The notes under the pieces: model-generated
Seen by the model: only the letters and a program-made list of their open reading frames with translations
Database searches by the model: none
What the model was told of the DNA's origin: nothing
Assembly: GCA_965178125.1 (NCBI GenBank)
Contig: OZ237756.1
Span: 558,001 to 622,000 of the forward strand
DNA: 64,000 nt
Direction: 5' to 3'
Source of the DNA: Bilabrum cf. latius
Lineage: Eukaryota
Shown here: positions 34,961 through 64,000 of the stretch, piece by piece
How positions within the stretch are numbered: the first letter of the stretch is position 1
Layout of the letters: the number at the start of each line of letters is the position of its first letter
Program-made: the position numbers and the translations under genes

Positions 34961-35061
34961 TGTTATCCGCCAAAATGTGTGTAGTTTTTATATAAGTAAA
35001 CTCTATTTCTACTATATAGTAGAAATAGAGTTATCATAACTTCACATTTTGGCGGATAACA
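34961..35061. repeat. Terminal 101-bp imperfect palindrome
   Basis: TGTTATCCGCCAAAATGTG (34961-34979) pairs with CACATTTTGGCGGATAACA (35043-35061). Inner perfect 34-bp palindrome at 34999-35032. Confidence 0.92.
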
Positions 35062-36633
35062 TATGAGGTCAATAATAACCACTTTACAACATCTTAAGCC
35101 GTAGTCCTTCATTATGTCCTTCACTTGAATATAATAATTTAATCGCTATTTATTCATATATCTACCTAATTTAATACCTTCGCGCCGTTAATGTCTATCT
35201 GTTAGACCTTCATTTGACTTAATCTGTTGAGTAAATCTCTAGCCTAAGTCTTAGGATATGCCCGCCCGAAATTGCGGAAATATATAGTCATTTAAGAATA
35301 TATGTTCGCAATTCTGGGCGCGTAGGTGTATTGAGTTTTATATTATGATTTGGTTTTAAGTATCAATTGACATTTACCACTTTAGAAAATAACTAAATAA
35401 ATACTTAAAGAGATTGACAGAAGTATTAAAGTCTTTTTAATACTTCCAATGAAAAATTTAAATTAATAAATAAAACTAAACTAATATCAACTTAATTTAT
35501 CTCTTTTTTTATTACTTGTCAATCTATACTTAAATAATTGAATATTTAAATATAACTAGAAGGAGATATTAATCACTTTATAAAGTCTTTTATATGTCAT
35601 CTCTTCAAAACTTCAAATATAAGGGTATCCCCTTAAAAATACATCCTTTAATCTATCGCCCGAAATTGCGGTAATATTATAGCTATTCAAGATATATTTC
35701 TGCAATTCTGGGCGCGTAGGTGTATTGATTTTTATTTTTCATAATTCTTTAAATATGTTTAAGTCCTTTGTTTGAGTATATGATATAAAGGAATACAAAA
35801 CGGGATAACTTAAAAATGACTCAATGAACTGGTTTATGTCAAGTGTATTACTTTGAAATGATTAATCACTAGATTAAATGGAAAATATAGGATAATTAAA
35901 TATGGTATAGTATAATACTAGCGCCCGAAATTGCGGTAATATATTAGGATATTAAGATATATTGTCGCAATTCTGGGCGCGTAGGTGTATTGAGTTTTAT
36001 ATTTTGTTAATTTTGACATAGTTATCTTATAGAGGTGTAATTTTGTAATAAAGATATTTCTAGTATGTGCTATATTAAATGTCCAGAAATGACGGCCCGA
36101 AATTGCGGAAATATATAAGTATTCTAGAAATTATGTCCGCAATTCTGGGCGCTTAGGTGTCTTCAATAATTAATAATCAACTACTTCTTTATTTTGATTA
36201 ATTTTTTTGACTTACCGTTCATTTTATTGACCACTTAACGGGATATCACAAAAAGACTTAACCACTTGACGAGATATTTTAAAATAACTAATAATAAATA
36301 TGACCGCCCCAAATTGTATCTCCAGATATGACCGCCCCAAATTGCGGAAATATATAAGTATCAAGAAAATTATGTTTGCAATTCTGGGCGCTCACCCGTA
36401 TTCAATTTTACATATTCACTAAGTCATACCACTTGAAGTGGTCCATTTGATCTTGTGTTCATATTTAGAATGTCCTTTAACTTGTATCAATGTATTGAGT
36501 ACTTCTTCTAACTAGTCCTTAACAAATGATTTTGTCTTATGATATGTCTTGGTAGTCTTCACCTATTTAATAACTAATTTACAAGTCTTACCGACAATAT
36601 ACTAAGTTAATAAATCTTGTATCATAATATATT

Positions 36634-37041
36634 ATGTATGAGATAATTATTGATGGATTCAAATATAAACCCTCTACTCGTAGAAATAAGAAATATGATG
36701 TATTCAAAAATGGTAAGTATATCACTAGCTTTGGTGATGCACGATATGCTCAATACTTTGATTTGATTGGTAAGTATGGAGATAATAACCATATTGACCC
36801 TAAAAGACGACGCCTATACTACCGAAGACACGGGAAGACTACCGATACTAATAGCTCAAAATATCACAGTCATAAAATCTTATGGGGAAGTGATAATGCT
36901 ATTAAGGACTACTTAACAAAACTAGCCAATGGAGTATTAGATGTAAAAAGGTATGTTAAAGGGGATACTTTGGAAAAATGGTTAGATGACTATAGGTCTA
37001 AAGTGGACGCAAGACTGAAACAATTAAAAATATTAAATTAA
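36634..37041 (+). CDS. Small basic viral protein of a family common in NCLDVs and virophages (DUF5754-like)
   Basis: PSTRRNKKYDV...SFGD.RY.QY...D.KRR..Y..RH motif, recognised from memory. Confidence 0.6.
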   Translation: MYEIIIDGFKYKPSTRRNKKYDVFKNGKYITSFGDARYAQYFDLIGKYGDNNHIDPKRRRLYYRRHGKTTDTNSSKYHSHKILWGSDNAIKDYLTKLANGVLDVKRYVKGDTLEKWLDDYRSKVDARLKQLKILN

Positions 37042-37198
37042 AAAGTCAATACGCCTACGCGCCCAGAATTGCGAAAATATATCTTGAATAGCTATAATAT
37101 TACCGCAATTTCGGGCGCCCAAATTTGAATCGAGCTTAAGACATCTCGTTTAATTAGACTTAAAAATAATATATTATTATAGTATATACTATATTATA

Positions 37199-37732
37199 AT
37201 GTGCTATAAATGTCGTAACTTCATAATCAATAAGCTAAAGATTAATGACTGGAATAAGATAGCCCCTCTATTAATACCAGCTGGAGAGACTAGAGAAGAA
37301 GACGGAAAGTGTATCTGTGATCACCAAATTAAGGAAGTTCATTTCGTTGAGTATCCCCCAACTGGTGATATATTTAAATTAGGTTCTGAATGTATTAATA
37401 ACACATTCGAAAAGGATCATGATGTGTATAAGGCTTGTATGTATAAGACTTGTGATGTATGCTCTTGTGTTGTTAAACGTAGTAGCTGGAAAAGTCATAT
37501 TAAATCCATTAAACACGAATTAAATAAAGACATATTAAAAGATAAGAGTAGATGCACTGATTGCGATGAGTTCATTGAAAAACATAAATATAAAAAGACT
37601 TGTCTTAGTTGTTATAATAAAAAGAGGAAATACTCACAATGTAAGAAATGTGAAAAGTATCTTATTAAACCAGGAGCCACTTTCTGGTTTTGTTATGACT
37701 GTAACTAGAAGAGAAAGAAATATAAGAAATAA
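37199..37732 (+). CDS. Cys-rich zinc-finger protein
   Basis: Multiple CxxC pairs and a C2H2-like CDVC...H.KSIKH. TAG at 37706 is read through to TAA. Confidence 0.7.
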
Positions 37733-37772
37733 TGTTTAATTTACGCCAACATATTATATCGTCTTTATATAT

Positions 37773-38006
37773 ATGTACGACTTGAAAATTATAATGTCTC
37801 CCAAGTTTTTAAAAGCTTGTAAAAATAATAAAGTTATTGAAAAGGCTATAAAAGCTATTGAAGACAATTTAAAAGATGAAATTAAATTATGTTTTGATGG
37901 CAATGAGTGGGATATGTCAAATGGATCATAGACTCTTTTTTATAATCTTCAAAGTAAAGAAGAACGAGAAGAAATATTAAAGAAAAATGGAACAATTACA
38001 ACATAA
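37773..38006 (+). CDS. Hypothetical protein (77 aa)
   Basis: Preceded by the CGCCA...TATATAT motif; one internal TAG; TAA stop. Confidence 0.5.
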
Positions 38007-38092
38007 ACAACTAGAAGAAATAACAGAAGACAATATGTTATAAAATCGTTTAATTAACGCCAAAATTTATATCTACTATATATATAGTAAAT

Positions 38093-39748
38093 ATGACTAA
38101 TAAAGGCAAGACATACACTAGAGGTAAAATATCTTACACGTATGGTGATGAACCGACAAAAAATCAAAAAGATAGTGATAATTTAGAAGCCACTATTAAG
38201 GGACTACTTGATAAAGGGTTTAATGAGATACCAATCACTAAAGAAAGTATTAAAAAGATTCCTTTATACTCTTACGTTTCGTACATCTCAAATATCAAAG
38301 GAAAGCCACTATTTAGAAGAGGTGGGGTAATTAACTCAATATAGAAGGATGGAGACTATTTCACTTTATATAACTTAGTGAGTCGTGTTCATTTTAGCGT
38401 TCAATAGTCTAACCTAGTTCGTCTTTTTTATAAGATGACTAAAGCTTAGACGAAAAAACTTAATAAACCAACCGGTAAATTAATTGAAGTAGAAGATGAG
38501 GACGACAAAGACAAATTTAATTATAAACCAATATTAAAGAAACTATATTATGAAGAAGGTAATGTAGTCAGTCGTGATGCGTTATATGACCTAGCTAGAC
38601 AAAAAGATAAACGTATTAAAAGACGACAAGTAGAAAAGTGGTTAAATAACTAGATGCTCCACCAATTGACCAAAAAACGACCTAAACAGTCAGCAGTAAG
38701 TTCTTTTGTACCTACTAAGCCTTTCTCAATTTACGCATTGGACTTAATAGACATGCAAAAGTATTCAGACACTAATGACGGCTATAATTGGATATTAAAT
38801 ATAATGGATATATTCACAAAATACCTATGGAGTATTTCATTAAAAGATAAGACATTAGTTAATATAATTCGTGAGATGAAGAAACTATTTAAGAAACCTA
38901 ATTGGAGAAAACCGACTGTTATGTTAAGTGATAATGAGTTTAATAAAGAGGCATATATTAAATTTATGAATGACAATGACATAAAACCACTATTCACCAT
39001 CGCAGGAAATCCATAGTCTAATGGTGCAGTTGAAAGACTTAATAGGACTATAAAAGAATAGATTAGAAAAGACTTTGCTATTAAGAATGACAGTGATGGT
39101 GTTTGGCATACGTCATTATAGAGACTAGTAAGAGCTTATAATAAGAGAAAACACAACACTATAGGAATGTCTCCAATAGAAGCAATGAAACCTGAAAATT
39201 TAGAAGTAGTTAGATCTAGAATTGAAAATAAGAAATTATCAAATAATTTTGACGGGAATGATAAAGATCTTAATGTAGGGGATAGAGTTAGAGTATTACT
39301 TGAGAAGAACAAGTTTAAAGGGAATTTATTCAATTGGTCTAGAGAAGTCTTCACTGTTAGATAGAAGACCAAACCAAGAAATCCTAAGTAGAGGATTAAA
39401 TATAAAGTAATGGACAAAGAGGGAGAACCTCTTACTGGATTCTTTAATGCTTCACAGTTATAGAAGATAGACAATGTAGAACACGAAGATAAGGTAAATG
39501 ATGACATAGACAAGGAAAGTGAAGAGCCTGAAATTGATAATGTTGAAGGTTTAGAAGTAGAACCAGACACAATAGAGAAGTTTTTAGATAAAAGACAAAA
39601 TAAAGATAGACTTATTGAATATTTAGTCAAATATAAGGGATATTCTAATAAGTTTAATGAATGGATTACCCGTAAGAAATTAGAATAGGATTATGGGAAA
39701 GACCAAATACGACCACTTGCGAAAGACTATTCTGATAGATAGAGATAA
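38093..39748 (+). CDS. Retroviral-type (rve, DDE) integrase with C-terminal chromodomain, 551 aa
   Basis: One frame with about 12 TAGs: LYY...RDALY...WLNN*M, DLID, SDNE, P*SNGAVERLNRTIK, YN...H.TIGMSP, and chromodomain EYLVKYKGY...NEWI. Confidence 0.93.
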
Positions 39749-39978
39749 TTAATCTAGTAATATACTTTATGGCATAATACCAGCGCCCCAAATTGCGATA
39801 ATATATTAGGATATTAAGATATATTTCCGCAATTCTGGGCGCGTAGGTGTATTGATTTTTATAATTATGTCATTTTATGTTAGCCAGTGTTTAGATACGA
39901 CTTTTAAAATAATAATTTTTTCTAGTATTTACCATATTAATATAAAACAAAGTCAAAGAAATTATTTATAATAAGTAT

Positions 39979-40659
39979 ATGGAATTGTTAAATATAACAA
40001 GATACAAAAATAAAGACCTTCTAAAAAGAGTAGTCAAGTTAAGTGAAAAGTACAAGTGGTCTCGTGATGACTTAAAAATGTTATGGATTAACAAGCATTA
40101 TTCAAGTTTATAGGGTGAAATAGATGATGAAGGGGACGAGATAGCAACTATAAATTTAGTGAGACAACCGTCTAAAATAGAACCTATCTAGTTAAAACCT
40201 CCACAATTAGAACGACAATAGGCTATATTGGAAGATGTTGAATTAGATAGCGAAGACATAGAGGATAATAAAGAGGAAGACTATTTGAATGATACATATA
40301 GTGATACAAGTAGTGAAGTAGTGAGTGAAGTCATTGAAGAGAAACCAATTAAAGAGAAACCAAAACCAAAAATCAATATTAGTGATCTTACAGTGAGTGA
40401 TAAACCTGAATATGTTTATTGTGTAGAGATTAATGATACAAAGGTATATTTTAACAAAAAGAATACATAGACTTATCCTGATGCTTTAAGAAGAGGTAAA
40501 TCACACGCTGATAAAATGAGAAAGCGAGTATTAGGACATCTTCATTTTGATGAGACCGATATGTATGACAGCAACTTATGGTATGCTAAAGTGTGCTGGG
40601 GTGATAGTGATAAAATTCATGATAACTTTACAAAGTTTAAAAATATCTTATTAAAATGA
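39979..40659 (+). CDS. Hypothetical viral protein (226 aa)
   Basis: ATG to TGA in one frame with four TAGs; acidic middle region. Confidence 0.65.
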
Positions 40660-40678
40660 CCACTATATATATAGGTAA

Positions 40679-41185
40679 ATGAAAAACACAATTTGGAAGT
40701 TTTTAAATGAATACTTTGATGTCTTTAGTTTAATACTTAAAATACGAGACGAAAACCCTAGTGATGTCATAAGTACTATAATAGCAATGTATGAAGAGAG
40801 CGAAATAGAAGACCCAAAAGAGATCCATAAACATATGAGTGAAATACGTCATAACTTGGAACTTAGATTTAAAACAAAGTATGTTGAAGTCCTAAGCACC
40901 GATCACGATGACAAAGCAGAAAGCTATCTCCATCTTAATAATATATTATGTAATATTGAAGGAGAGCAATATGTGGAGGATAGCAAAATCAAGATGTCCG
41001 AGAAAAAACAAGTATTTATAAAGACTTACGGTGATGTGGATAAATTCAACGAGACTGTCCAAGAGATGGAACAAGAAGACGAAAAGACTAAAACAGGAGT
41101 AGAAAAAGAAATAGATCAAAAGTTAAGTCTATTATGTAATACTTCTAAACAACCAGACAATATTTGTCTAGATTATAAATTGTAA
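40679..41185 (+). CDS. Hypothetical acidic viral protein
   Basis: 168-aa ORF preceded by CCACTATATATATAG. Confidence 0.7.
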   Translation: MKNTIWKFLNEYFDVFSLILKIRDENPSDVISTIIAMYEESEIEDPKEIHKHMSEIRHNLELRFKTKYVEVLSTDHDDKAESYLHLNNILCNIEGEQYVEDSKIKMSEKKQVFIKTYGDVDKFNETVQEMEQEDEKTKTGVEKEIDQKLSLLCNTSKQPDNICLDYKL

Positions 41186-41297
41186 TATCAGTATGTATTT
41201 TAATTATAAAAATACAAATTGACAGGTTAGATACGACCGCCCCAAATTGCGGATATATTATAGCTATTCAAGATATATTTCCGCAATTCTGGGCGTC

Positions 41298-41612
41298 TCA
41301 CCGTGTTGATTTTTCCACACGTTTTAACTCATTCATAATTTCTAAATCAAGTAAGCCATTAATAATACGAAAATCTTTGTAATCTTGCGCCATCTAAAAC
41401 ATTCCTTCATATTTAGGCAACATAGCCATTTTAAGACCTAGGATAGACTTAATATCTTCGTAGGTAATAATCTAGTCTTTTTCTACTTCTTTTAGCTCTT
41501 CAACTTCACAAATACGAAGGTCCTTTCCATCAAAAAATTGATCAAAAGCTGTCTTTACCTTTTTTAATATATTGTTCAAACTTTTTATGTTATAAATATT
41601 ATTAAAGTTCAT
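41298..41612 (-). CDS. Hypothetical protein (104 aa) flanked by two hairpin repeats
   Basis: Promoter motif upstream on the minus strand; two TAGs; the TGA stop lies inside the repeat tail. Confidence 0.6.
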
Positions 41613-41768
41613 TTCTATATATATATAGTAAATATTTTTTGGCGGAATAATTAAACTTAGGATCTAACCGCCCGAAATTGCGGAAATATTATAGCTATTC
41701 AAGATATATTTGTGCAATTCTGGGCGCGTAGGCGTATTGACTTTTGTATTATTTTGTATTTATTTGTA

Positions 41769-42407
41769 TTATATTTGGTACCCTAACTAGAGGCAATTCC
41801 TCAATTTATCGTGAAGCTATTCGTAAGTATTATAAATGTAATAGCTAGAAGGGTTCAACTCTTTGATATAAGAGTTACGGTCTTCTAACATAGACTTCTA
41901 TTTATCTACTTTCTAATTCTTTAAAGTCTTCTAGAATAGTGAATTAGATGGAAGACATACAACTATACTTTCTTTTTTAAATAACTCATTAGCTAGACTT
42001 AACTCTTTAGTAAAGAATATTACTCTCTTCTCGCTACCTTCATTCAACCAGTTATCTTTTACCCATTGAAGGGCTTCTTTACTGGCTTTTCTATTAAGTA
42101 TATTATAATTACCCCAATCACTTTTTAACTTACATTCGTCTAGTTTCATAAGTAATTCGGGCTCCTAGACATATACTCCTAGAGTACTATCTAAATCAAC
42201 AAGTAAACAGTCTTTAGAACTAGACCGTAATATTTGACAAGCGGTAGACTTACCACTACCTTCAGGCACACAGATACATATTTTTTTACGTTTATGTAAA
42301 GGTTTATCCCATAACCACTACCAACAAGACATACCACCAGAGTATGCTAGAGGTAGTAAGACACTTAAACCTCCTACAACGACACTGCTTGAACTGATTC
42401 CATCCAT
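41769..42407 (-). CDS. Small P-loop NTPase/kinase-like protein with hydrophobic N-terminus (212 aa)
   Basis: ICICVPEGSGKST (Walker A-like) followed by LLVDLD; several TAGs; TAA stop. Confidence 0.65.
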
Positions 42408-42450
42408 TTTATTATATTAATAAAAAAGATATTTCTATAATTAAACTCAA

Positions 42451-43173
42451 TTATCCTGTTAAGAAAATACAAGGTACGACTTTATACTCTACTCCATTAG
42501 CATCAGTAGAAGTACCACTTGAAAAGTCTTCATCTACTAGAGCTTTTGCTACAATAGTCTAATCAACAGAGACTGGTTGAGGATTAGGCGCATAGACATA
42601 TCCACTATCAGAGCTATTAATTAAGTAATCACCCGCACTTACATCTCCTCCATTTTTATTTACTTTCACAGCTCCATCACCTAAAGATGCCACAAGTACT
42701 TTACCATCATCATGGTGTTCTCCTACATATACTCCAAAAGGTGGTGAATGTTGAGATGCTTGACTTACGACATATTCATTAGTTGTTGGTCCTTTATTAA
42801 CTACACTATCAAGAGTAACCACTGACCCAATACCAGCTGGTAAACTAGAAGCAACATCACTACAAGATGCAACATGTGTACCGGTAAATGATAAGAAGTT
42901 GGTTGCTGTCATAGTACTGGTTTGAGTGCCATCACCTGCGACATTGATTGAGATAGATGCACCTGCTGATGCTGAGTTTTTACCTATTCTCCATGTGAAA
43001 GACTTAGCATCTTCATTAGTACCACTCATAATATATGGTAGTGATTGACCATTGAAGTTAAGTCCAAAGTTAGCGGCTCCATCAAAGCCTTCTGCTTTAA
43101 TTGATTCTACTTCAATAGACTTACTCTTTAATTCATATTCATTTTTGTTTAAGAGATTGTATATTCCTGCCAT
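42451..43173 (-). CDS. Putative fibre/spike protein with intramolecular-chaperone-like C-terminal domain (240 aa)
   Basis: SFTGTH...VASLGDGAVKV...GDVSAGDYLINS..SGY resembles the FTGQH-type C-terminal domain of viral fibre proteins. One TAG. Confidence 0.55.
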
Positions 43174-43416
43174 TACTTATATTATATTAGCTAGACTAGA
43201 TATTTTTTTTTTAAATTACGAGATTTTAAAAAGTTAGTAGTATAAGATATAGTATAATACTAGCGCCCCAAATTGCGATAATATATTAGGATATTAAGAT
43301 ATATTTCCGCAATTCTGGGCGCGTAGGCGTATTGATTTTTATAATTTAGTCATTTTTAATATAGCCACCTCTTACAATGTAATATTTTTAAATTAAAATA
43401 TTATAGTATATACCAT

Positions 43417-44859
43417 TTAAAGACTTCTTAATCTTGAATCTAACCAAGATATTAGAGTATCAAGTCTCTTATTAAGACCTGAACCTTCACCAGTCTTACT
43501 TTCACTTGCTCCACTAGATGATTGACCTTGTGCTTCTTGTTCTTGTTCTTCCCGTTCTTGTGCTGCTCGTGCTGCTCTTGTTCTTGCTTCTTGACCTTTA
43601 CCAAGATCTTCACCTGCATCGCTTGCTACAAATTCTCCATCTGGTTGTCTTTCTAATAGTGTCCCTTCTGTCTCATCATCTAAAGGTTCATTACCTCTTG
43701 CTATCTATTCAGCAGCTTCATTCATTACATCACTTAATGCGGCTTCTCTTCGTAAGTCTGGATCTTTTTCCTTAGCTCGTCTAAGTCTTTCTTTAAGTGG
43801 AGTTCCTGACGGTTCTGCACGACTAAATGGGTTTGGTTGTCTTTTTCTTAGTGATAATTGTCTTTCAATATCTTTCTTTGCGTCATCAAACTTGATTCTA
43901 TTTAAATTTACAAATCTAGTTTTACTGTCAAGTCCCGATTGTCTTCCAGTCTTAATATCTTGAAATAAGCTCTATAAATCATAATACTACATATCATCTA
44001 TTGGCACACCATCATATTCATCACCTAATAGTGCTTTAAGTCTATCTTTTAGTACTGGTGCTTTAGATGTGGCTTTTGTTTTATAAATATCATTTATTGC
44101 TTCCATTCTTTTATTAAGTACATCTCTTTTTAGTTTAACTCGATCAGTTTGGCTTCGTAATCGTTCCAAAGCATAGCCTTTTGACTTTTTATCTCCTAAT
44201 CTTTCTAATAGAGGTACTATTTGTGTTCCTTTTGCTCTTTGTCTAACTTTTACAAGTCTTGATGCCATTGAATTAAGTTGAGCCTTAGAGAGACCATTTA
44301 AAGTTGAATCACTTACACCTCTCTCTTTAAGAAACTTCTTCAACTAGTCTACTGTTAAGTCATTCTCTAAGTCTTTGACATCTTTAGGTAAATTGTCTAT
44401 CTCTTCTGCTTCAATAAATAAGTTATTTAATGCGTCGTTAAGTTTTGACTCAGCTTTACCTTTTTGAAATAGAGTATTAGATGAGTTCATATATGGAATA
44501 TTCTATATCATCTTAGCAATAGCTTCAGCATCTTCATCAAGTAGTTCATTATCTTTAGCTAGTCTTACAACTTGATCTATATCTGCTACTTTATACTTTT
44601 TACCTTTCTTACTGTTATCTTTAACTCTTTTTAAAGTCCTTTTCATAAGATTTGCTATTCTTTTTAATTTTCTCTTTTCTTCTAATGGCATAAAGTCCTC
44701 TTCTAATTGAATCTTTTGTTTTCGTTTAGCTTCTCCTATAGCTGCTCTTATGGCTCTCTCTTCGTTTCTTACCTTTCGTCTTGCTTGACTTGTAGGGGCT
44801 CTACTTTCCACAAGTCCATCGAGTAAGTCTTCCAATACTGCTGTTCTTTTTTTAGACAT
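43417..44859 (-). CDS. Lys/Arg-rich helical protein (480 aa), possible virion core protein
   Basis: ORFs 44503 and 43987 and the downstream sequence are co-framed via TAGs; TAA at 43417-43419. Confidence 0.65.
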
Positions 44860-44898
44860 CGTATAATTATATTATGATAATAGATAATATTATTAAAT

Positions 44899-45342
44899 TT
44901 ACATACCATTTTCTTTTAATATTTTACTTGCTTCTCCTAGACTTACGCCATACTTCTTCATTACCGCACTCACTAATTTACCTCTTGCTTTAGCTTTTGG
45001 ATTAGGTTTCCTCTTACGCTTAGCCTTTCCAAGTCCTACAGTCTTAAGTGCAGCATCAAGAGGGACACCAACTTCAGGGGCTACAAACTTAAGACCTGTT
45101 CGTATTGCCTTTCCTACATTACTTTTAATACCTTTTTTAATTGTTCGCCCTACTTTCTTGAATTTACGACCTACTTTTTTAAAAAAGCGTCCAACTTTTG
45201 AACCACCTTGAACACCATTCATTTGATAGTCTTCAAATAATTCAAGTAGTTTTTGCTTAAATTCGTCTTTTAAATTGTTGACTTTGGCATTAGAGGGTGA
45301 TTTACCTAGTTGCTATAGTCTTTGTCTTATGAAATCGTCCAT
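44899..45342 (-). CDS. Basic virophage core-like protein (147 aa)
   Basis: GG dipeptide followed by the amphipathic basic segment FFKKVGRKFKKVG, and C-terminal RGKLVSAVMKKYGVSLGEASK. One TAG. Confidence 0.65.
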
Positions 45343-45627
45343 TATAATAAAGAACTATAATATTTCTTATTAATATATGGTTAAATTAACAAAGTAGTAG
45401 CTAAAGTATTATTCACGATTTGATGATCCTAACGCCGGATGGGGTTCGGTGTTGATGCCAGAGTGGGAGCGCGTGAACGTCTCGTTGGGTTCCGATGGCG
45501 GTTGCGACCGGGAAGGTGCGACCAAGCCAACGGATTGCTTGCGATGACGCGCATACCCTCTCTGTGTTCAGGAGAGGGGCGGAGATTGGGTAATTTTTGA
45601 AGAAAGTTCCTGCTCCGTTCATTTAAC

Positions 45628-51387: not shown

Positions 51388-51581
51388 TGTGTTTGGACCG
51401 TGCTGGGGTCGCCTTCGAGGTCATTAGGCGATTCGGCAGATGGAAGTCGGCATCTGCATGCGAGGTGTACTTGCGGGGCGTCAGGGAAGGCTTGCCTCCT
51501 CTGGAGCTCGGCGGCAGGAGCCTCGATTTGAACAGGCCAGTGTGGGTGCTGGCCAGCGCGCTGCGGCTGAACTTGGAGTGA
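50523..51581 (+). CDS. Ngaro tyrosine recombinase, overlapping the polyprotein in another frame; start unresolved
   Basis: LRLGEL, HKAD, GHSIRIAA, GRWKS...Y (R-K-HxxR-W-Y set). Four TAGs; TGA stop. Confidence 0.88.
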
Positions 51582-53571: not shown

Positions 53572-53716
53572 AATTCTATATATTTATATGATATTTTAAT
53601 CATATTCTTAAGACTGTGCACTCTAAAATGAATATTTGAAATGGCTACTTCTCACAATATACCTTTTGAACCCACTAATTATTAGAAAAATAATAAATAT
53701 TAACATATAGTATATA

Positions 53717-54784
53717 ATGTCATTATCATACGATGAAATACCAAATAGTCATTTAGTTGCTTTAAGAGAATACAAGCACAAGAAGAGGAACAAAAGCGTC
53801 TTTTTTAGTGAAGATGTAGGGGAAAAAGTCATAACTCCAGAAGATATAAGTGATGATTTACTTGAAGAGTATTATGGAAAGAGAGCAATTAAATATGAGA
53901 AGAATAAAAAAGCATTACGTGAAGAGATGTGTAAGCTAGTGAATGGAAATAAAAAACTAGTTAGAAAGACTAACGAGTTAAGAATAGATGATAAGAGTTA
54001 GTTTGAAATAGTCCCATTCTTTGATGATGAGACCAAAAGACAAATACACTATTTAAGTGGTTAGGCTGGTGCTGGTAAGTCTTATATTGCTAAGTCTTTA
54101 CTCAAGTATTATCATATGTTCATTCCAAAGAAGAGGGTTTTAGTCATTACACCAGTACAGGAAACAAATCCAACTTATTTAAAATATGGTAATTTTATTG
54201 ATATTGATAAATTAGTAGCAGTAGATAGAAACGATAGTTATGATGACTTAATGAGGAAATACAAAGAAGAAAAGATATTCTTTAGGTAGGAAAAGAAGTC
54301 ATTAGAACCTCATGAATTAATTAAAAGAGAGATAGAGATAGAAAGAATGAAACCAACAAGTAAAGACAAGACAAAGGCATCATTTACCACTACTCCATTG
54401 TATGAAGAATGGGCAAAATAGGGTCCTTCTGTGGTGGTATTTGATGATTATGAAGCCTTAAACGGTGATAAAAAGTAGAGAGCGTTATTCTTAATTAAGC
54501 GTATAGGTGAAGTTGGAAGACATAGCTCAACAAATATGATAGTTATAAGTCATTTAACGAATGATTATGCGAATACTAGGTCAATAGTCATGGAAAGTCA
54601 TAATATTATTTTATTTAAGAGAAATCTATGGAAATTTAGCAAATATTTAATGAAAGCATATTTAGGATTTGATGCAAGTCTTATAAATCGTGTTTATAAA
54701 TTGTTTGGAGAAGGTAATAGATGGCTATGTATTAATAAGACTTATAATTTTATCACTTGTCCTAAATAGATGTTCGTATATTAA
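53717..54784 (+). CDS. FtsK-HerA/A32-like DNA packaging ATPase (355 aa)
   Basis: Walker A SG*AGAGKS, Walker B VVVFDD, GRH...IVISH, TRSIVMESH. Confidence 0.92.
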
Positions 54785-54803
54785 TTTTCTTAGTATTAAG
54801 TAT

Positions 54804-55352
54804 ATGGATATAACCACTGCATTAAGTCCTGAAGAGGTACAAAGACTATACTTTACATTTACAAAGTAGCATATACCAGTTATAATGTATGAAGAAATAA
54901 GTGATACTAATAACATCAGACAATTTCTAGATGAAAATCCTTTATTTGTCCTTTATTATCCTAACTTAGTAGAAGGAGCAACAATGAGCGGTCATTATAC
55001 TGCGGTCATATTTAACAAATCAAAGAATACTCTTTATTTTTGGGATAGTTATGGTCAATTACCTGATACTCATATTCCAGTTGTAGGTGGAGTCATAGAC
55101 CCATAGAAGCTATATGATAGAAGTAGTCTTCTAATAGATCACGTATTAGATGCTGGTATTAATGTTGACTATTCAAATCAAAAGAATCAATTAATATCAA
55201 ATAACTCTGCCACATGCGGGAGGTGGTGTGTGCTCAGGATATTATTCCATCACTTGACGAATGATTAGTTTAATAGTCAATTAAAGAAGGCTTTTAAAAA
55301 GTATGGAGGAGGACTAGATAATGATGAACTTATTACTTTGATAATTAGTTAA
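54804..55352 (+). CDS. Virophage maturation cysteine protease (adenain/Ulp1-like, 182 aa)
   Basis: GHYTAV, YFWDSYG and Q...ATCGRWC supply the catalytic H-D-Q-C residues. Confidence 0.92.
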
Positions 55353-55709
55353 TATGACATATACCATAAATTTTTAGATATTGAAAATTGATATCTATAA
55401 GGTGGCCAAATTAAAAAGACTAAAATATAAAAATGAATACGGGTAAGCGCCCAGAATTGCGGAAATATATCTTAATATCCTAATATATTATCGCAATTTG
55501 GGGCGCTGGTATTATACTATATCTTAAGATACTAAATTTTTAAAATTTCGGAATATTGGATTTTTTCAATGAGTCAAATAATTAATAAAAACTTTTTTAA
55601 AAAGTCAATACGGGTACGCGCCCAGAATTGCGGAAATATATCTTAAATAGCTATAATATTACCGCAATTTGGGGCATTAGACAAGACTTTTCTTGATAAA
55701 TGTTATAGA

Positions 55710-56636
55710 ATGGTAGAGATTCAAGAACCAGATATCTTTTATATTAACTCATAGGATACTATAACATCTATTAATACTAATAGACCAGTATCAATACATG
55801 AACAGCGTCAAGGTAATATCTTGACAAATTCACAAAACTACTTATTATCACTTGACCGATGGACTCTTAAATGTCGTATTCCTTTATTTGTAGCAAGTAA
55901 AGAAGTAAAGAATAGCGATAATTAGTCAATTTATAAGATGTCGTTTGTGAAGAAGAGTGATGGAACTACTTACACTCGTAATATTGTCTTAACTAAGCCG
56001 TTATATTATAGTCTTAAGACCCTATCTAATGAATTTAATAATACTCTTAGTGATTTATGTGGAGATGCTAGTATTCCAACTGATAGTATAGTATTTGAAT
56101 ATCACGGTAAGACTAAAACATTTAGTTTCACCCGTTTAGCCGCTTTTACAAGTGCGTGGACTTTAAGTTTTAACTTTCCTTTATTCTCTATCTTTGAGAC
56201 ATTTGAATATGACGATGAAGGTAAAGACATCAAGAGTGATACTTATATAAATCTATTAGATGGATATAATGAATAGAGTGCTTCTACCTTAGATTAGTTT
56301 CCTACTATGGAGTATATTCAAATTATTAGTCCATCACTTCCAATACTTCCAGAATTTACGCCATCATATAAAAGTACATCTAGTACAGAGATACAAAGTG
56401 AAAATATCTTAAGTGATTTCAAGATAGACAATACAACAGGAACGAGTTTTATTAAAATAAACTTTAGTAGTGGAGGAAATCATAGATGGCAATAGTTCTA
56501 TAGATCAGCATTTAATAGTTATAGTATAGTACCGTATTTTAGAGATACTTTTGGAAACTTATACGAAATACCCTTTACTTTTGGACAAGGACTTAATATA
56601 AAAGCTCTATTTAAAAGTAAAAAGTTAATAACTTAA
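55710..56636 (+). CDS. Minor capsid (penton) protein (308 aa)
   Basis: Located between protease and MCP. N-terminal IFY...R...IL.N...Y..S..R...IPLF pattern; beta-rich; several TAGs. Confidence 0.78.
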
Positions 56637-56678
56637 AGTAAAAAATAAATAAATATCTTTAGTCTTAATATATTTATA

Positions 56679-58565
56679 ATGTCTGATATGGATAATGTAC
56701 CTGTAGCAGCACAAAGCAAAGTCGTAGATGACGTCTCAGAACTACCAGTAACTCAAATAGCTGACGAAAAACTCAACTTTGTGGGTGATAGTCAAGCTAT
56801 TACTCTAGGAACTACCCTTGGATACTCTTCCAAGTTTCAAAATCACTACGAACCAGATGGTGGTAACTCTAGCGCAACTAATGCATTTAGAAGTAATTAT
56901 ACTTTCGTAGTGCCATCAAATCAAGGAATGACTGACAGTAATCCCCGTCTAAGAGTTTCATTTGACGTATACATCTATGATAGTTAGAACAATGGAGCAG
57001 TAGCTCAAACTGATATCGTCAATAAGGTAGCCCCTTCTACATTTATGGTAAATTCAATGATCACAAGTTCCACAGTTAAAATGGGAGACTTATCTCGTAG
57101 TTCATCACCTTATCAATTAGTCAATTTAATAGCTAGAAGTCTTGACCGTGCCACTCTAGCACAAATAAGTCCTGTCTTTTAGGCTGATAACACTTGGGAA
57201 TTTAATACTGCCGCAAATGGTCTTGCTAAGTCTGTCCTTCAATGGGGTGTAAATGATGATAGTATTATGGAAGCTCGCGGTCCTGGTAAGAATTACCGCG
57301 CAACACTTGAAAAAGTGGATGCTAATACTCCAATACCTAATAATAATGTAACACCAACTCAAGACTATGTCAAATTACATATTGAAATCTCTGAAGCACT
57401 TCTTGCACGTCCTTTCCAATATATGATGGGTGGTAATGCTAGACCTTTTGTTGATCATCCACAATGAAATGTTAATTTACAAATGAGAAATAACTTAATT
57501 GATAAGATGTTTAATACTTCAAGTGATTGGAATGGAGACTATGCTTTTGCTTTATCCGATTGCTAGATCCATTTTGATGTCTTTACTTATAATACTCATC
57601 TTAACTTCTTGAAGAAAGTACCTAAACAAATATTCTACAACTCTGTTGACTTTGAACTACATGAAGAGCCTAAACTTGATAATCCTATCACTACTAAAGG
57701 TGTCCATACTTTTAATAATTATCAACTTTAGACTTGCCCTTCTTGGTTTGCTGTGTGCTTAGTTGATTCTCAATATGGAGAAGCTAGTGGTACACCTCAT
57801 AGAACACTTGCCATTAACAATATTAAAGTACAACTTAGGTCTTAGGGTTCTATTTTAGGAGAACTTACACAAGACGATATCTTTAGACTTAGTGAAAGAA
57901 ATGGATCAAATAGTGAGTATGCTTCTTTTACTAACTTAGATGTAACTGTAGGAGGTGCTTCTAAAGTATACGGATCTAATGGCTGGCTCTTATTTAGACT
58001 TAGTGATTTAAATACTCCTGAAACTATTCAAAGCAACAGTGCTGACCCTATTAGTATTCGTGTTCAAGTAGCCAATGACGAACCCCCAACCGCTGCTATG
58101 TCTCAAGGATATAAAGCTCAATTATTCTGTGCCTATGACAAGATTATCGTGAATACTAGAGGTGCCGCTATTGAATGGCGTGAAGATAGTGCTTCTGTTG
58201 ACCCTGAGAAAGTGGCTAAACCTTCTAATTATACATTTTCTAATATGAACTACTCTAAGAACGTATTAGGTGGAAGACGTCGTAAAGTGATGCAATTCTT
58301 TAAGAGAGCCTTTAACAAAGCTAAAGACTTAGGACGTAAAGTGGTAGACTTTGGAAAGAAAGCTAAAGCTAAATTTGATAAAGTGAAACCAGCTCTTCGT
58401 AAAGCAAGACAAGCAGTAAGTGAATACTTACCCGATGAAGTGAATGACTTAGCTGAACGTGTTGGAGCAGGTCTTTTAACTAGTGGTGGAAGTCTTTTGA
58501 CCAGTGGAGGTAAGAAATTAACTAAGGCTCAACTTATGAAACTTAGAAAGTAGCTCAATATGTGA
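56679..58565 (+). CDS. Major capsid protein (629 codons) with one internal TGA at 57465-57467
   Basis: Long beta-rich frame after the penton gene. C-terminal LGG|RRRK basic tail with repeated TSGG, as in processed virophage MCPs. Confidence 0.82.
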
Positions 58566-58752
58566 GTCGTAAATTATTAATTAATATTTAAAAGTTATAA
58601 ATATTGACTAAATTTAAAAACTCAATACGGGTACGCGCCCAGAATTGCGAAAATATATCTTGAATAGCTATAATATTACCGCAATTTCGGGCGTTCATAT
58701 CTTAAGACTAGTTTAAATATTACGCCATTAAATATCCACTATATATATAGTT

Positions 58753-59175
58753 ATGGCAGCAGTATCACCGTGTGAAGACTTACTTTATATGGAGTATTCA
58801 TTCTTATTCTTACCACATAGAGAAGACCCAACACTTAAATCTCAAAAGGTTTACTTAGATGATGAACTTGAAGGAGATCCTGAAGACATTGTAATAGATA
58901 AAGATTAGATACAAGTAAATAATAGAGGTCATATAAAGACATATGTAAGTGAAGGAGGCTTTACAAAGTTAAAGGTAGGATAGATAATTGAAGAGATGGA
59001 GCAAGAGGTGCGTAATTAGAATGGTATTCATTATGATTGTATTTTTTATCATAAAGTTGAACACGACACGAGCACAGATATTTATAAAGTAGTATGGGGG
59101 TGGTATCCAGCAGACTTTCCAACAAATGGATGCGACCCTGCTATCTTGTATAAGAAACCCCCTAATATGGATTAA
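58753..59175 (+). CDS. Hypothetical protein (140 aa), single-gene unit between hairpin repeats
   Basis: Promoter motif, four TAGs, TAA stop. Confidence 0.65.
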
Positions 59176-59286
59176 TTATTAAAAACTCAATACGGGTACG
59201 CGCCCAGAATTGCGGAAATATATCTTAAATAGCTATAATATTACCGCAATTTCGGGCGGTCATATCTTAAGACTAGTTTATTACTT

Positions 59287-59317
59287 TCGCCAAAAAATAT
59301 CCACTATATATATAGTA
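59287..59317 (+). promoter_or_regulatory. Representative copy of the conserved viral promoter-like motif
   Basis: CGCCAWWW-N5-8-YCYACTATATATATAG lies immediately before the ATG here and at 38093, 58753, 60255 and 41612(-), with partial copies before 37773 and 40679. Confidence 0.75.
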
Positions 59318-59707
59318 ATGTCAGATAAAGTAGATTTAAAAATATCGTTTTCTCAAAGTCTTGTATCAAGTGTAAACCTTGATTGGGATGGAATAGGTAA
59401 GATGTTATGTGGAAAAATCACAAGTAAGATAGAAGGAAATGAGATAGTGTTAAGACAAATAGGTCAACCGACTCCAAAAGATGGAATGATGGAGTTCTCA
59501 TACACGACCGACTATAAAGCAAATCAAGTTTTTGAATTACTTAAAGACTTAACTGATGAAAGACAAGACGCGATTATGGGATACGTTCATTGTAAGTTAA
59601 GTGATAGCAACAGGAAAAGAAGACCATTAACTGAAGAAGATCACAGACAAATGATTCTGGATGCTATGGATAGGAGTGTTAAAGAATATAAAAAACATAT
59701 GTCATAA
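59318..59707 (+). CDS. Hypothetical protein (129 aa)
   Basis: ATG directly after the promoter motif; TAA stop. Confidence 0.7.
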   Translation: MSDKVDLKISFSQSLVSSVNLDWDGIGKMLCGKITSKIEGNEIVLRQIGQPTPKDGMMEFSYTTDYKANQVFELLKDLTDERQDAIMGYVHCKLSDSNRKRRPLTEEDHRQMILDAMDRSVKEYKKHMS

Positions 59708-59769
59708 TTAAGTCTTAATAATAAAGTCTTAATATTAAAGTTATTAATATTAAGTCATATCTATGTAAT

Positions 59770-60085
59770 AAAAAAAAATTTCTTTGAGCTAGTAATTATA
59801 CCGATGGTTTGACTACTTGGCGAAGTCATTCGTAAGTCATTGTTGTAGCGGAGATGCGAATGTCAACCATGGACCGCTATCCCTATTAAGTCTTACGACT
59901 AAGTCTGCTACAACCACTTACGACTACTTCTACAGTATCCAAACTCCCTTCAAAGACTTGCAAGACGTGTGCTTTGTCATGAAAATGACTTACAGAACGA
60001 CTCACGGCGATGTCAGTGGTGGGAATCGAACCCACGACCTTGACTTTGTGAAACAATCACGATATCACTAGACCAAGACCACAAC
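59770..60085 (-). ncRNA. Candidate tRNA-headed, Pol III-type structured RNA
   Basis: A-box TGGTCTAGTG (60075-60066), B-box and T-arm GTGGG-TTCGATT-CCCAC, downstream long stems, and a T9 terminator at 59778-59770. Confidence 0.5.
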
Positions 60086-60254
60086 GCACCAAGAGGTTAA
60101 AAAAAAAATATTCAAATAAATTTTAAAATTCAATACGCCTAAACGCCCAGAATTGCAGAAATATATCTTAAATAGCTATAATATTACCGCAATTTCGGGC
60201 GGTCATATCCTAAGTTTGATTATTCCGCCAAAAATATCTACTATATATATAGTA

Positions 60255-62096
60255 ATGTCAGATAATTTAGACTTCCATTTAATTAAACAAGTTGATGATA
60301 TATGTTTCACTGGTGTTGAATTCTATTAGGGATATCGAATAACTCAAGGTGAACAGCTTAAACAACTTAATTACTTATTCGTAGATAACAAAAAGGATAT
60401 TGATAAGTTTGTATCTATTTCATTTGTAAAAGAAGCAGATAAGGATGAGTTTGAGCTATTACTGGTTAATGAAAATGGAAAATTAGAAGACGACACAGAT
60501 ATATTAATGCTAACGCCGAATGGGGTTCGGGGTTGATGTGGCGATGCGTTCGAGACTCGAACACAGGCTCCGGTCTACCAACGCGAGGTTGCAACCGCCA
60601 GTGCGACCAGCAGCTTGCGAGGCATTCCCTCGTCTCCTTCCTTAGGGAAGGGGGCGGGGCAGCGCGGCAGTGGCCGTTCCGGCTCATGCCGTTGTTTTGT
60701 TTAGTATTTATGTTCGGTTTGGTGCTCACACGGGTAGTGCTTAACGCCGTGTCAACTATCGCGCGTGTCCATGTGGGTCCGTTCGGCCTACATCGTGCAT
60801 CCATCCTCGGCCTACTTGGCGCTCCAGTGGATCCGAACCAATATTTACTTCGATGTGATCCATCTTTCTCGGCACATCGATGGGACTTCGGTCCGTTGGG
60901 CTCGGCTGCTGCTTGCGCCACGGTCTCCCGGGTGTGTGCTCGCCGATGGCATTTTCGCGCGATCTCTGCGTCCCTCCCTTTCGTACTTGTTCCTACGCAC
61001 GGCCATGCATGTAGAAACATATTCAAATGGTTCGATCTTACGGTTTTCCGACGACCCAGCCTTTCCGTTGGCGAGGCGCGCTCCGCTTTTCCGGTCGCAC
61101 CTCGAAAGCAACCACTTTCGGCCAGATCAGCCATCGTACCAGGATACAGCACGATTTGCACCTATCGAGTGACTGATCATTTGAATTGTGCAGGGTGGGC
61201 ACGTAGTCAGCTTGGACTCCATCGTCCTCTGGCTGCCGACGACAGCAGGCTCGGTGAGCCTTCGTCATCGTCCAGACAACCCTGCAGCTCGCACCAGGCG
61301 TGCGTGCAGGAGGTCGAAGCGAGCAGCGCGGTGTGGCGCAGCTCGTAGACGGAGGCCGGCCTGGAGCCTGGTCGGTTGACGCAGCATCAGTGGTGGGCTG
61401 GTGCTGTGTCTTGCGCGGGTGCCGGAGCTTGGCCACGGTGGCCTGCTGCTCCCTGCGCCCCACGCGCAGTTCCTCCCGCTCCGGCGGATGAGTCAGCAGT
61501 GGCACGTTGCCACCGGCTGACGACGACAGCAGGCTCGGTGAGCCTTCGTCATCGTCCAGAAAACCCTGCAGCTCGCACCAGGCGTGCGTGCAGGAGGTCG
61601 AAGCGAGCAGCGCGGTGTGGCGCAGCTCGTAGACGGAGGCCGGCCTGGAGCCTGGTCGGTTGACGCAGCATCAGTGGTGGGCTGGTGCTGTGTCTTTGCG
61701 CGGGTGCCGGAGCTTGGCCACGATGGCCTGCTGCTCCCTGCGCCCCACGCGCAGTTCCTCCCGCTCCGGCGGATGAGTCAGCAGTGGCACGTTGCCACCG
61801 GCTGACGACGACAGCAGGCTCGGTGAGCCTTCGTCATCGTCCAGAAAACCCTGCAGCTCGCACCAGGCGTGCGTGCAGGAGGTCGAAACATCATTAAAAC
61901 AGAGAGAGACCTTATTAAGTACTTGAAAGAAATAGATTTAAACAAAAAAGACTATTCAAATGATGATGTTATGTTGTCAACATTTCCAATTATAATGATG
62001 AGCATACGAGATCTAGTAATCAATAGCAATATTGGTTCAATTGAGAGTATCAAAAAAGGTGATACAGATCAATTTGACCACTTGAAAGATAACTAA
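60255..62096 (+). pseudogene. Hypothetical viral gene (150 aa) interrupted by a GC-rich insert; join(60255..60503,61893..62096)
   Basis: Removing the insert gives in-frame ...EDDTDI|IKTERDLIKY... Confidence 0.7.
60504..61892 (+). mobile_element. Non-autonomous Ngaro-related element with ~2.3 internal 284-bp tandem repeats (61238-61888)
   Basis: Starts TTAATGCTAACGCCGAATGGGGTTCGG, compared with ATGATCCTAACGCCGGATGGGGTTCGG in the Ngaro A repeat. Ends in CATC like Ngaro B2. No RT or YR. Confidence 0.78.
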
Positions 62097-62241
62097 ATAA
62101 ATTCAATACACGTACGCGCCCAGAATTGCGGAAATATATCTTAAATAGCTATAATATTACCGCAATTTCGGGCGGTCGTATCTTAAAAGATTTTAATACA
62201 TACGATATCACTTATTAAGTTTTTTATTAATAAGTCATAAT

Positions 62242-64000
62242 TTAATTTTGTTGTTCTAGTGGATCATTATCCTCATCAACAAATAAAGCGGGGTCTAAGT
62301 CAACCTCTATCTCTTCATCGGGTAATTGAACCTCTTCATCATCAACAAATATATCTACTTCACGAGTCTTTTTCTTGTTAGACCAGATATATTCCATCTC
62401 ATCGATAATATCCTAGTTAAATTCTACATCGTAATTAATTTTCTTTTTCTTACAAGTCATAAATATGTCTTTCCCAAACATTGATTTATATACTTTAAGT
62501 ATTTCGTAATAAAGACCTTTATCAGTGGATAAGTCAACTTTACTTCTTCTTTGGCAGTCATACACTGTCCTATATTCATCTGTTAAGTCTTGGTCTAATA
62601 CTTTCTTTTTGATATTATAATCAAGATTAGTTCTTTTAAGACCTAAAGTATCAATCATCTTATTAAGTAAGACTAATTTTCTAGAACTAGACTTAGCATT
62701 GATAATATCAAACTCGCCTTTATTAATTGCTTTCACAAGTAAGTGTTTATCATCTTGTCTAAAGAATTTATTGAAATTAAATAAATTAGATAACTTACCT
62801 TTATTAATAAAGTACTCTTTGTATTTGTCAATATCACCTTCATCTAAGTCTAAATATTTATTAATCTTCTTGACATTAAGACAATTAATATCAAAATTTT
62901 CAAGTTGTTTTTCTTTAATGGTATCTTTGATTTCTTTATCCTTACATCTGGTGATCTTAACAGATAAATCATAAGACACGTCATAACCGGTATCAATTAA
63001 CTACTTGATCATATGTAATTTAGGGTTTGTCTTATAACAATCTACCTTGTAAAGATAATTACGATATAGTTTCTTGAATATGATTTTAACTTTGCTCATT
63101 TCTTCTTCTACTTTGTCTTCTACTTCTACCTCGTTGAAGTCGGGATATGTATCACTGACAAATTTAACTAATTCTTCGTAGTCTTTTAAAGAGGTAGCCA
63201 TAAAAGATTTAACTTGTGAAAGACTTTCATATGTGCTAGATCGTCCTTTCTAGTAATCAAAAAATATAGTGATATGTGATGGGTTTCTACATCTGTTAAG
63301 CTATTGAACCATTTGGGGAGGTGTGATAGTATGACCTTTGAAATAACCAAAGACTGGTCTAGTCATAGTGCTATCTATCCCGTAAATGACTTTAGGTGAG
63401 AAGATAATGATATCAAACATATCCATATCATAGTCTTTGTCTTCGCTTTCTGCTGTAAGTATTAAGATTTTATTTAATTTCTTATCTTTCTCGTTATCTA
63501 TAATTTTAAGACTAATTAACTCATTGATTATATCAGCTTTTGTCTTACTATCACTAGCAAGCATAAATTTCTTGTGTTTCATTAACTCATCTCTAAAAGT
63601 CTGTTCGTCATTAACAAATACAGTTTTGGTGCCCTTGAACCTGTTTCTGTCATTCCTAATATATTGATAATCTAATTTTAATAATTCTAAGAAATATAGA
63701 GCATCTTGAGATAAGTCAGCATCTGCTACTATGAACTACTTACAAGTGGTAAGAGCACGAATAAGAGTAATGAAACTCATTGGTCGCCTACCATATAAAG
63801 TCGTAGAACTTAAACAGTGTTCTAAGATACTATTAAACTCATCTAAAAAGACAATATAATCCTTAAAGTTATAATTGCTAAGACTAACAATACTTTCAGG
63901 AGTAATAACAATACTATCACCCTATTTGTATTTATGGTCTTGATAGAATTTAGTTGATTTTGGAAGACTACGCATCTATTGCTTACCTAATAAAATACGA
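62242..64000 (-). CDS. SF2 helicase of the herpesvirus UL9/origin-binding-protein type, 3' part
   Basis: ITPESI, VFLDEFNSILEH...S.T, IVADADL, IFSPKVIYGIDS, QMVQ*LNRCR. One frame via TAGs; TAA at 62242-62244. Confidence 0.8.

Follow-up and report, generated by a model that had tools for sequence, protein, structure and literature searches.

A probable endogenous mavirus-like virophage reading TAG as glutamine in a GC-rich eukaryotic chromosome

Structure of the locus

The 64,000-nucleotide stretch of DNA analysed here (the window) contains, between position 34961 and its end, approximately 21 kb of DNA of 30% GC within a eukaryotic chromosome of 60% GC. This AT-rich DNA occupies 34961-45424, 52085-60515 and 61888-64000; the initial annotation had given the whole of 34961-64000 to a virophage, which holds for the AT-rich portions but not for approximately 8 kb of GC-rich retroelement. 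At the left boundary, GC content falls from 0.67-0.70 to 0.22-0.32 over 34800-35400, and the translated reading frame of a host PhyH-family dioxygenase (34024-34962, minus strand; Pfam PhyH, 2e-13) stays open as far as the insertion, covering profile positions 66-212 of 213 only. The left terminus of the element is a 100-nt palindrome (34961-35061) with a predicted DNA fold of -32.3 kcal/mol (z -11.9), equalled by none of 200 shuffled sequences, and is followed by a non-coding left arm (35264-36389) in which repeat searches located five copies of a hairpin repeat. The right end lies beyond 64000, outside the window.

The stretch was found in six sequencing runs belonging to two studies, with no RNA run among those listed. 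In run X1, two contigs with different flanks stop precisely at 34960, and a contig at host depth spans 33500-34989 with no differences. This contig enters the element by 29 letters, two below the length at which a contig was counted as bridging, an overlap close to what would be expected from a 31-mer graph at the edge of a repeat. Read depth on the element greatly exceeds that on the flank, the flank is almost missing in organism B, and two loose-end strings of assembled short-read contigs had no match within the window.

Reading frames and gene content

With TAG read as sense, 22 ORFs open in the element (the major capsid gene counted as two), none of them frameshifted, and these terminate at TAA (15) or TGA (7). 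Their approximately 5330 codons include 70 in-frame TAG triplets, no TAA and one TGA, whereas the two other frames hold 183 and 437 TAA and 75 and 333 TGA. At least one TAG occurs in 19 of the 22, and the longest frames reach 564, 385 and 585 amino acids, against 205, 235 and 195 under the standard code. TAG makes up about a third of the element's glutamine codons (70 TAG, 128 CAA, 7 CAG) and is present in each core gene.

The major capsid protein (MCP; 56679-58565, plus strand; 628 codons, six of them TAG) matches the mavirus MCP structure 6g45 (E 3e-7) and Pfam MCP_V20_C (1.2e-7, above cut-off) in its C-terminal half, and 6g43 (4.6e-5) in its N-terminal half. The penton, or minor capsid, protein (55710-56636, plus; 308 amino acids, five TAG) matches mavirus 6g41 (7.2e-13) and Sputnik 3j26_N (4.7e-5). 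At E <0.01 the solved structures matched by these two proteins are those of mavirus and Sputnik only, and the only Pfam capsid match is the Sputnik V20 domain; by sequence comparison both proteins appear to be of virophage type (mavirus/Sputnik). An integrase of 551 amino acids (38093-39748, plus) contains exactly 12 TAG codons, as had been estimated, and carries an rve domain (Pfam 8.9e-8, 32.8 bits, cut-off 32.6) and a C-terminal chromodomain (Chromo, 4e-7). An alignment of its homologues (A1) is invariant at D217, D280 and E314, and P0001 is among its 12844 library matches, at 99% identity. The C-terminal 585 amino acids of a PrimPol-helicase (62242-64000, minus) precede the point at which the gene leaves the window; this fragment is 100% identical to P0154 (932 amino acids, PF09250), matches NCBIfam CyRepA1 (3.8e-25) and has 38 homologues, which bear a PrimPol domain. 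Retranslation with TAG read through, followed by family searches, was the check proposed at the outset, and it returned virophage homology for MCP and penton; capsid proteins matching mavirus and Sputnik structures, together with an rve and chromodomain integrase, uphold the claim of an endogenous virophage and support the integration of a virophage-type element into a eukaryotic chromosome.

The proposed module stands for integrase, penton, MCP and helicase, and two further members are candidates through weak matches, motifs and gene order. A putative packaging ATPase (53717-54784, plus; 355 amino acids, six TAG), located upstream of protease, penton and MCP, has a Walker A motif (GQAGAGKS), a Walker B motif (VVVFDD) and family matches below cut-off (AAA_10, 1e-5, 25.2 bits against 27.5; AAA_22, 1.3e-5). 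In a putative cysteine protease (54804-55352, plus; 182 amino acids, three TAG), a Peptidase_C57 match (0.0043) below the family threshold is confined to the His-Asp motif, His64, Asp81 and Cys138 were picked out by eye, and the AF2 model (pLDDT 43.8) is unusable. A P-loop protein (41769-42407, minus; 212 amino acids, seven TAG) gives weak matches to AAA_18 (0.0042) and RecQ1 (0.026). Three ORFs at 42451-45342 (minus; 240, 480 and 147 amino acids, the latter two Lys/Arg-rich) had been labelled core proteins, a label left without supporting homology by family searches that returned nothing at threshold. A PDB search at E <0.01 found no match for the ATPase, protease, helicase, 240-residue or 212-residue proteins. 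Of two small ORFs, one (36634-37041, plus; 135 amino acids) weakly resembles DUF5754 (Pfam 5.9e-6, 26.7 bits against a cut-off of 27.4), and the other is represented by its 5' part (60255-60515, plus), where a second insertion cuts it; by our reading of the boundary sequence its frame resumes past 61887.

Between genes, a cassette is repeated in which a hairpin with a 15-bp stem precedes a conserved AT-rich motif immediately upstream of the ATG. By analogy with mavirus, a helper giant virus may read such cassettes as combined 3'-end and promoter signals; giant-virus sequence is absent from the window itself. The hairpin repeat had no matches in IMG/VR or JGI metagenomes, and a gapped scan of IMG/VR for the promoter motif returned nine contigs with one match each, none with several and none offering a lead.

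Proteins from other copies (P0001, P0152 and P0154) are best explained if the genome contains several copies, that in the window among them. The suggested metagenome search for relatives was unsuccessful: neither MCP nor MCP alignment A3 found one in IMG/VR or the JGI metagenomes, with patterns whose Q positions could miss TAG-coded sequences. In the literature, where supplements may bear on the point, our searches turned up neither a TAG-recoded virophage nor nuclear UAG reassignment in bicosoecids or stramenopiles.

TAG as glutamine and the code of the host

Columns of the integrase and helicase alignments were scored as well conserved where one residue reached at least 59%, and six of the seven TAG codons in such columns coincide with glutamine in homologues. 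At the TAG columns of integrase alignment A1, glutamine is found in 38, 26 and 31 of 39 homologues; in the helicase alignment it is found in 28, 24 and 29 of 30. TAG columns with another residue hold tyrosine (13 of 22, slightly below 60%) and lysine (19 of 30; helicase alignment). The proposal that TAG encodes glutamine is thereby borne out, with TAA and TGA kept as terminators.

Host-type sequence follows a similar pattern. A GC-rich ORF of 1757 codons (5232-10502) contains 14 in-frame TAG and no TGA or TAA, with 33 and 26 TGA in its other frames, and the RT-RNH and recombinase frames of a Ngaro-like retrotransposon inserted in the element contain five and four TAG. Glutamine codons in three host ORFs number 16 TAG, 40 CAA and 113 CAG, so that TAG takes a share of glutamine codons three to four times higher in the element; for these host frames the evidence is the presence of in-frame TAG, the coincidence with conserved glutamines being a property of element genes. 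Because host-type frames and the inserted retrotransposon also hold in-frame TAG, the sequence supports a variant code that belongs to the host. The host BUD31 gene has a single TAG 15 codons past the end of its conserved domain, which we take to be about where BUD31 proteins end, so TAG could still terminate some host genes. The sole tRNA gene in the window is Leu(CAA), and the search of the window found no tRNA gene, suppressor or otherwise, inside the element.

If virus and host both read TAG as glutamine, the virophage genes would appear broken to ordinary annotation. The prediction that a standard annotation would call the element decayed is correct in that the standard code fragments every core gene, and incomplete in that this copy is also truly damaged.

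Insertions and lesions

Between two divergent virophage genes, and thus intergenically, sits a Ngaro-like tyrosine-recombinase retrotransposon of 6.66 kb and 60% GC (45425-52084, plus; boundary ambiguous by 2 nt). Its split direct repeats have the Ngaro layout A1-[ORFs]-B1A2B2, with A1 (45423-45599) and A2 (51751-51927) 100% identical and B1 (51622-51755) and B2 (51954-52087) 99% identical. RVT_3 is matched above cut-off (8.3e-6, 26.2 bits) and Phage_integrase, in 50523-51581, below it (8.6e-5, 22.8 bits against 27.1); the RVT_1 family gave no match within it, and an FVDDF motif was seen by eye. Composition, repeats and boundaries identify a second GC-rich insertion of 1.37 kb (60516-61887, plus) as a Ngaro-like remnant, the start of which resembles the Ngaro A repeat; copies of 284 nt lie in tandem at 61231-61887, and it lacks any long ORF assignable to a known family.

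The contig sequence further places an in-frame TGA in the MCP gene (57465-57467), at a site where the near-identical P0152 has leucine and P0151 and P0153 have methionine. With this codon, two insertions, and a helicase and right end that leave the window, the module cannot be called complete, as the initial annotation had it; the best explanation is that this virophage copy is dead or dying.

In all four of four runs, short reads join 36390 to 45424 on opposite strands. A right terminal inverted repeat (TIR) after 45424 was considered and rejected, the shorter side of the joint (38-45 letters) being a copy of the hairpin repeat. The 827 extra letters of the joint contigs end precisely at 52911, the position of the hairpin repeat beyond the Ngaro-like element, and the joint would fit Ngaro-free copies that link 45424 to 52085.

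Alternative explanations

Very probably, the locus holds an integrated mavirus-like virophage in a host that reads UAG as glutamine and UAA and UGA as stops, in a copy that is dead or dying. A mavirus-like genome would have been put into nuclear DNA by its own rve-chromodomain integrase, in a GC-rich unicellular eukaryote whose ribosomes decode UAG as glutamine and stop at UAA and UGA; the virus would have been long adapted to that code, and this copy would then have been degraded by a host Ngaro-like retrotransposon, by a further Ngaro-like remnant that interrupts a gene, and by a premature stop in the capsid gene. One must consider, nevertheless, that fragmentation of every core gene under translation table 11, in a copy with real lesions, is also what a standard-code virophage decayed by random nonsense mutation would present. 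Such decay is a negligible prospect: it would have to produce 70 in-frame TAG with no TAA and one TGA, though the latter two are common out of frame, to place TAG on conserved glutamine columns, and to leave 22 ORFs without frameshifts. We regard as quite unlikely a code private to the virus, of the kind seen in TAG-recoded phages, in a standard-code host: the BUD31 TAG directly past its conserved domain and the three- to fourfold greater share of TAG among glutamine codons in the element speak for it, yet 14 TAG stand in a GC-rich host frame of 1757 codons that has neither TGA nor TAA, nine are found in the RT-RNH and recombinase frames of the Ngaro-like element, and the virophage element lacks a suppressor tRNA.

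An assembly chimera, in which free or contaminant virophage DNA has been fused to a host contig, would account for element depth far exceeding that of a flank almost absent in organism B, and the short-read contig does fall two letters short of bridging the joint. Against this, the PhyH frame stops at the boundary, other flanks stop at the same base, the X1 contig agrees with both sides without a difference, and two host-type GC-rich retroelements, sharing the code, lie inside the element; we consider a chimera very unlikely. Finally, an rve integrase, ATPase, protease and two jelly-roll capsid proteins are common to virophages, polinton-like viruses and Mavericks, and the element could in principle be one of the latter two. 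The structure matches of MCP and penton at E <0.01, which are to mavirus and Sputnik only, and the Sputnik V20 domain as sole Pfam capsid match point instead to a virophage and make this assignment highly improbable.

Comparison with known systems

The closest parallels to an endogenous virophage of this kind come from Cafeteria burkhardae, where endogenous mavirus-like elements (EMALEs) bear Ngaro insertions (PMC8547959, in the portion available). Like EMALEs as described there, the present element is AT-rich in a GC-rich host, has an rve integrase, the order ATPase-protease-penton-MCP (ATPase and protease putative here) and repeated promoter-like motifs, and is interrupted by a GC-rich retrotransposon of approximately 6 kb with the A1-[ORFs]-B1A2B2 layout, RT/RNase H and tyrosine recombinase (the last two putative here). 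Unlike them, it has a PrimPol-helicase as its replication gene and an MCP only distantly mavirus-like (E 3e-7), and TAG is sense in virus, retrotransposon and host frames; the term "genetic code" is absent from the available text of PMC8547959. A virus using its host's variant code has a precedent in polinton-like elements: according to the accessible part of PMC10120064, those of Streblomastix strix use the host's code, in which TAA and TAG both encode glutamine. These too are integrated capsid-encoding DNA viruses in a host stop-codon reassignment, with an MCP of the Metamonada polinton-like group, whereas here TAG alone is reassigned and the capsid appears virophage-type. The nuclear code of Iotanema spirale (UAG as glutamine, UAA and UGA as stops) is, as far as can be judged from the window, identical; nothing links the present host to fornicates, and no virus is described in the available portion of that report (PMC5304391). 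Some giant-virus metagenomic genomes are best called with alternative codes (PMC13524828, as gene-calling predictions), suggesting that giant viruses of variant-code hosts, as needed by the present virophage, may exist; the available text does not mention a virophage, and none of its genomes is linked to this element.

Implications

That a variant genetic code can act as a barrier against viruses and gene transfer is a long-standing proposal, for which, to our knowledge, few tractable eukaryotic cases exist. With TAG in 19 of 22 ORFs, it is reasonable to suppose, as initially suggested, that the code limits the host range of the virophage; by analogy with known virophages, the element would depend on a giant virus, and it is equally reasonable to expect that this partner must tolerate UAG readthrough too. 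We tentatively put forward, as a possibility falling short of a probable one, that the virophage lineage co-evolved with a UAG-glutamine protist, with host, virophage and giant virus forming one closed variant-code system; if so, the code would bar standard-code viruses and keep variant-code viruses in.

This organism offers a direct test, since 19 of the 22 virophage genes contain TAG and the element has intact sister copies (P0001, P0152 and P0154). A helper giant virus would be expected to reactivate intact virophage copies, raising the questions of whether the element can be reactivated, by which giant virus, and whether the latter avoids TAG stops. More broadly, standard pipelines would miss endogenous viruses of variant-code protists or label them pseudogenes, and the association of virophages with Ngaro elements known from Cafeteria may extend past one genus.

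Reading frames and the sense of TAG

The virophage element begins at 34961, where host DNA of about 60% GC (up to 34960) gives way to 22–35% GC; its three AT-rich blocks (34961–45424, 52085–60515 and 61888–64000) sum to about 21 kb, with two GC-rich inserts between them. Under translation table 11 these blocks hold short frames only (maxima 205, 235 and 195 aa), and with TAG as sense the maxima become 564, 385 and 585 aa. If TAA is taken as sense instead, frames in the AT-rich DNA grow longer too, but the maxima are shorter and the frames lack homology. Across 22 chosen element frames (the major capsid protein, MCP, counted as two) there are 70 in-frame TAG codons, spread over 19 of the frames, with no TAA and a single TGA, and the frames terminate in TAA (15) or TGA (7); the two alternative frames of the same genes contain 183 and 437 TAA and 75 and 333 TGA. 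The initial annotation had put the integrase TAG codons at about 12, and 12 were counted in frame.

Glutamine occupies three integrase TAG columns in 38, 26 and 31 of 39 homologues, and three helicase TAG columns in 28, 24 and 29 of 30. Elsewhere, one TAG column holds Lys in 19 of 30 and another Tyr in 13 of 22, the remaining codons lying in variable columns. Glutamine is the best reading of TAG by far. No tRNA genes were found in the part of the element inside the window.

Gene content and repeated candidate signals

The 551-aa integrase comprises an rve core and a chromodomain, each above cut-off, with 12844 library relatives (E up to 0.001), and its D217, D280 and E314 fall in columns invariant among 39 aligned homologues. 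Each MCP half has a solved-structure match in the mavirus major capsid protein (6g45, 3e-7; 6g43, 4.6e-5), and the C-terminal half also matches the Pfam Sputnik V20 C-terminal domain above cut-off (1.2e-7). For the preceding gene the matches are the mavirus penton (6g41, 7.2e-13) and, at 4.7e-5, the minor virion protein of Sputnik. Of the last element gene, which encodes a PrimPol-helicase of 932 aa, the window includes the C-terminal 585 aa, 100% identical across the fragment to the library protein P0154, which carries PF09250, a domain present in 35 of the 38 proteins listed as helicase matches; the fragment matches NCBIfam CyRepA1 at 3.8e-25, below that model's cut-off. The putative ATPase has Walker motifs, with all P-loop matches sub-threshold, and the sole match of the putative protease is vaccinia I7 peptidase (0.0043, confined to the His-Asp motif), its single-sequence structure model being of useless quality. 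Both stand within the order ATPase-protease-penton-MCP, which is that of mavirus. The 'core proteins' of the initial annotation are Lys-rich proteins for which that name found no support.

A repeated hairpin, whose arms GCCCVRAATTGC are spaced 44 nt apart, occurs in 18 copies (35264–62173) in AT-rich DNA only, giving 36 arm matches against 0.11 expected; most copies lie directly after stop codons, and five that were folded gave z of -3.7 to -4.8. The repeat had no matches in IMG/VR and JGI metagenomes. The motif ACTATATATATAG lies 3–6 nt upstream of five ATGs (38075, 40662, 58738, 59303 and 60240), with a variant upstream of a sixth start codon, and is itself often preceded by GTTTAATTA and CGCCAAAA. 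We infer that the hairpin acts as a terminator and ACTATATATATAG as a promoter, a candidate for use by a helper virus.

Insertions, integration and read depth

A 6.66 kb insert (45425–52084) separates two divergent virophage genes and carries RNase H, an RT-like motif, a weak tyrosine-recombinase match and paired repeats (A1, 45423–45599, equal to A2, 51751–51927; B1 equal to B2). Such a structure is described in PMC8547959 for Ngaro retrotransposons, inserted in about a quarter of Cafeteria virophages. Contigs from all four runs exit the window at 45424, and their length would put the far end at 52911, consistent with copies that lack the Ngaro. The second insert (60516–61887, 1.37 kb) cuts an ORF starting at 60255; its start resembles the Ngaro A repeat, 284-nt tandem copies occupy 61231–61887, and the insert is possibly what recombination has left of a related element. 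The assembled MCP gene contains an in-frame TGA (57465–57467), where the near-identical relative P0152 (on a 48.6 kb contig) has Leu and P0151 and P0153 have Met.

At the left boundary a host PhyH-family dioxygenase frame (34024–34962, minus strand) covers profile positions 66–212 of 213 and is open to 34962, with positions 1–65 missing; because it is incomplete and ends at the boundary, the host gene seems to have been cut by the insertion, although an intron may instead account for it. One contig of run X1, at flank depth, spans 33500–34989 with 0 differences, its 29 letters inside the element falling under the bridging limit of 31. Two further X1 contigs with other flanks both stop at 34960, which places the element terminus at 34961.

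Six runs from two studies contain the stretch. In Logan contigs of four, flank depth is 8.7 (X1), 76–82 (X2) and about 0 (X5 and X6), and element depth in bins 37124–44975 is 255–767, 240–1094, 13–38 and 3–10, respectively; these depths are not copy numbers, and so are taken as a hint of many copies. Over 33500–51600, the element/flank depth ratio is unequal between two samples of organism A; in organism B the element and Ngaro are present and this flank is almost absent (X1, X2, X5 and X6).

Further left, the translations of frames 15866–16876 and 19526–23221 begin with almost the same zinc-knuckle N-terminal region, probably a segmental duplication. A tandem repeat at 24722–25773 has a 14–15 residue unit recurring in translations of both strands. 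At 28849–32002, probably a long low-complexity repeat, GC skew drops as low as -0.36, and each of the three plus frames stays open for 400–1000 codons.

A code shared with the host

The element works like the endogenous mavirus-like elements (EMALEs) of Cafeteria. A variant code common to host and integrated polinton-like virus has been published for Streblomastix strix (PMC10120064), Iotanema reads UAG as Gln and keeps UAA as stop (PMC5304391), and gene calling predicts variant codes for some giant-virus genomes (PMC13524828). Literature searches covering main texts turned up no case of stop-codon reassignment in a virophage.

The TAG-sense code is the host's own, since a GC-rich host frame and retrotransposon frames also contain in-frame TAG: the former (5232–10502, 1757 codons) has 14 TAG, no TGA and no TAA, with 33 and 26 TGA in its alternative frames, and the latter have 5 (RT-RNase H) and 4 (recombinase). 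That host is a eukaryote, as the window includes a BUD31 splicing-factor gene (3597–4715, minus strand; 1.6e-36). Its single TAG lies 15 codons beyond the conserved-domain end and, taken as Gln, adds a 257-aa low-complexity tail; given this position, TAG may yet serve as a stop in some genes. Among Gln codons, TAG accounts for 70 of 205 in the element against 16 of 169 in three frames of the host, a higher share that we take to mean that an AT-rich genome has long been adapting to the code.
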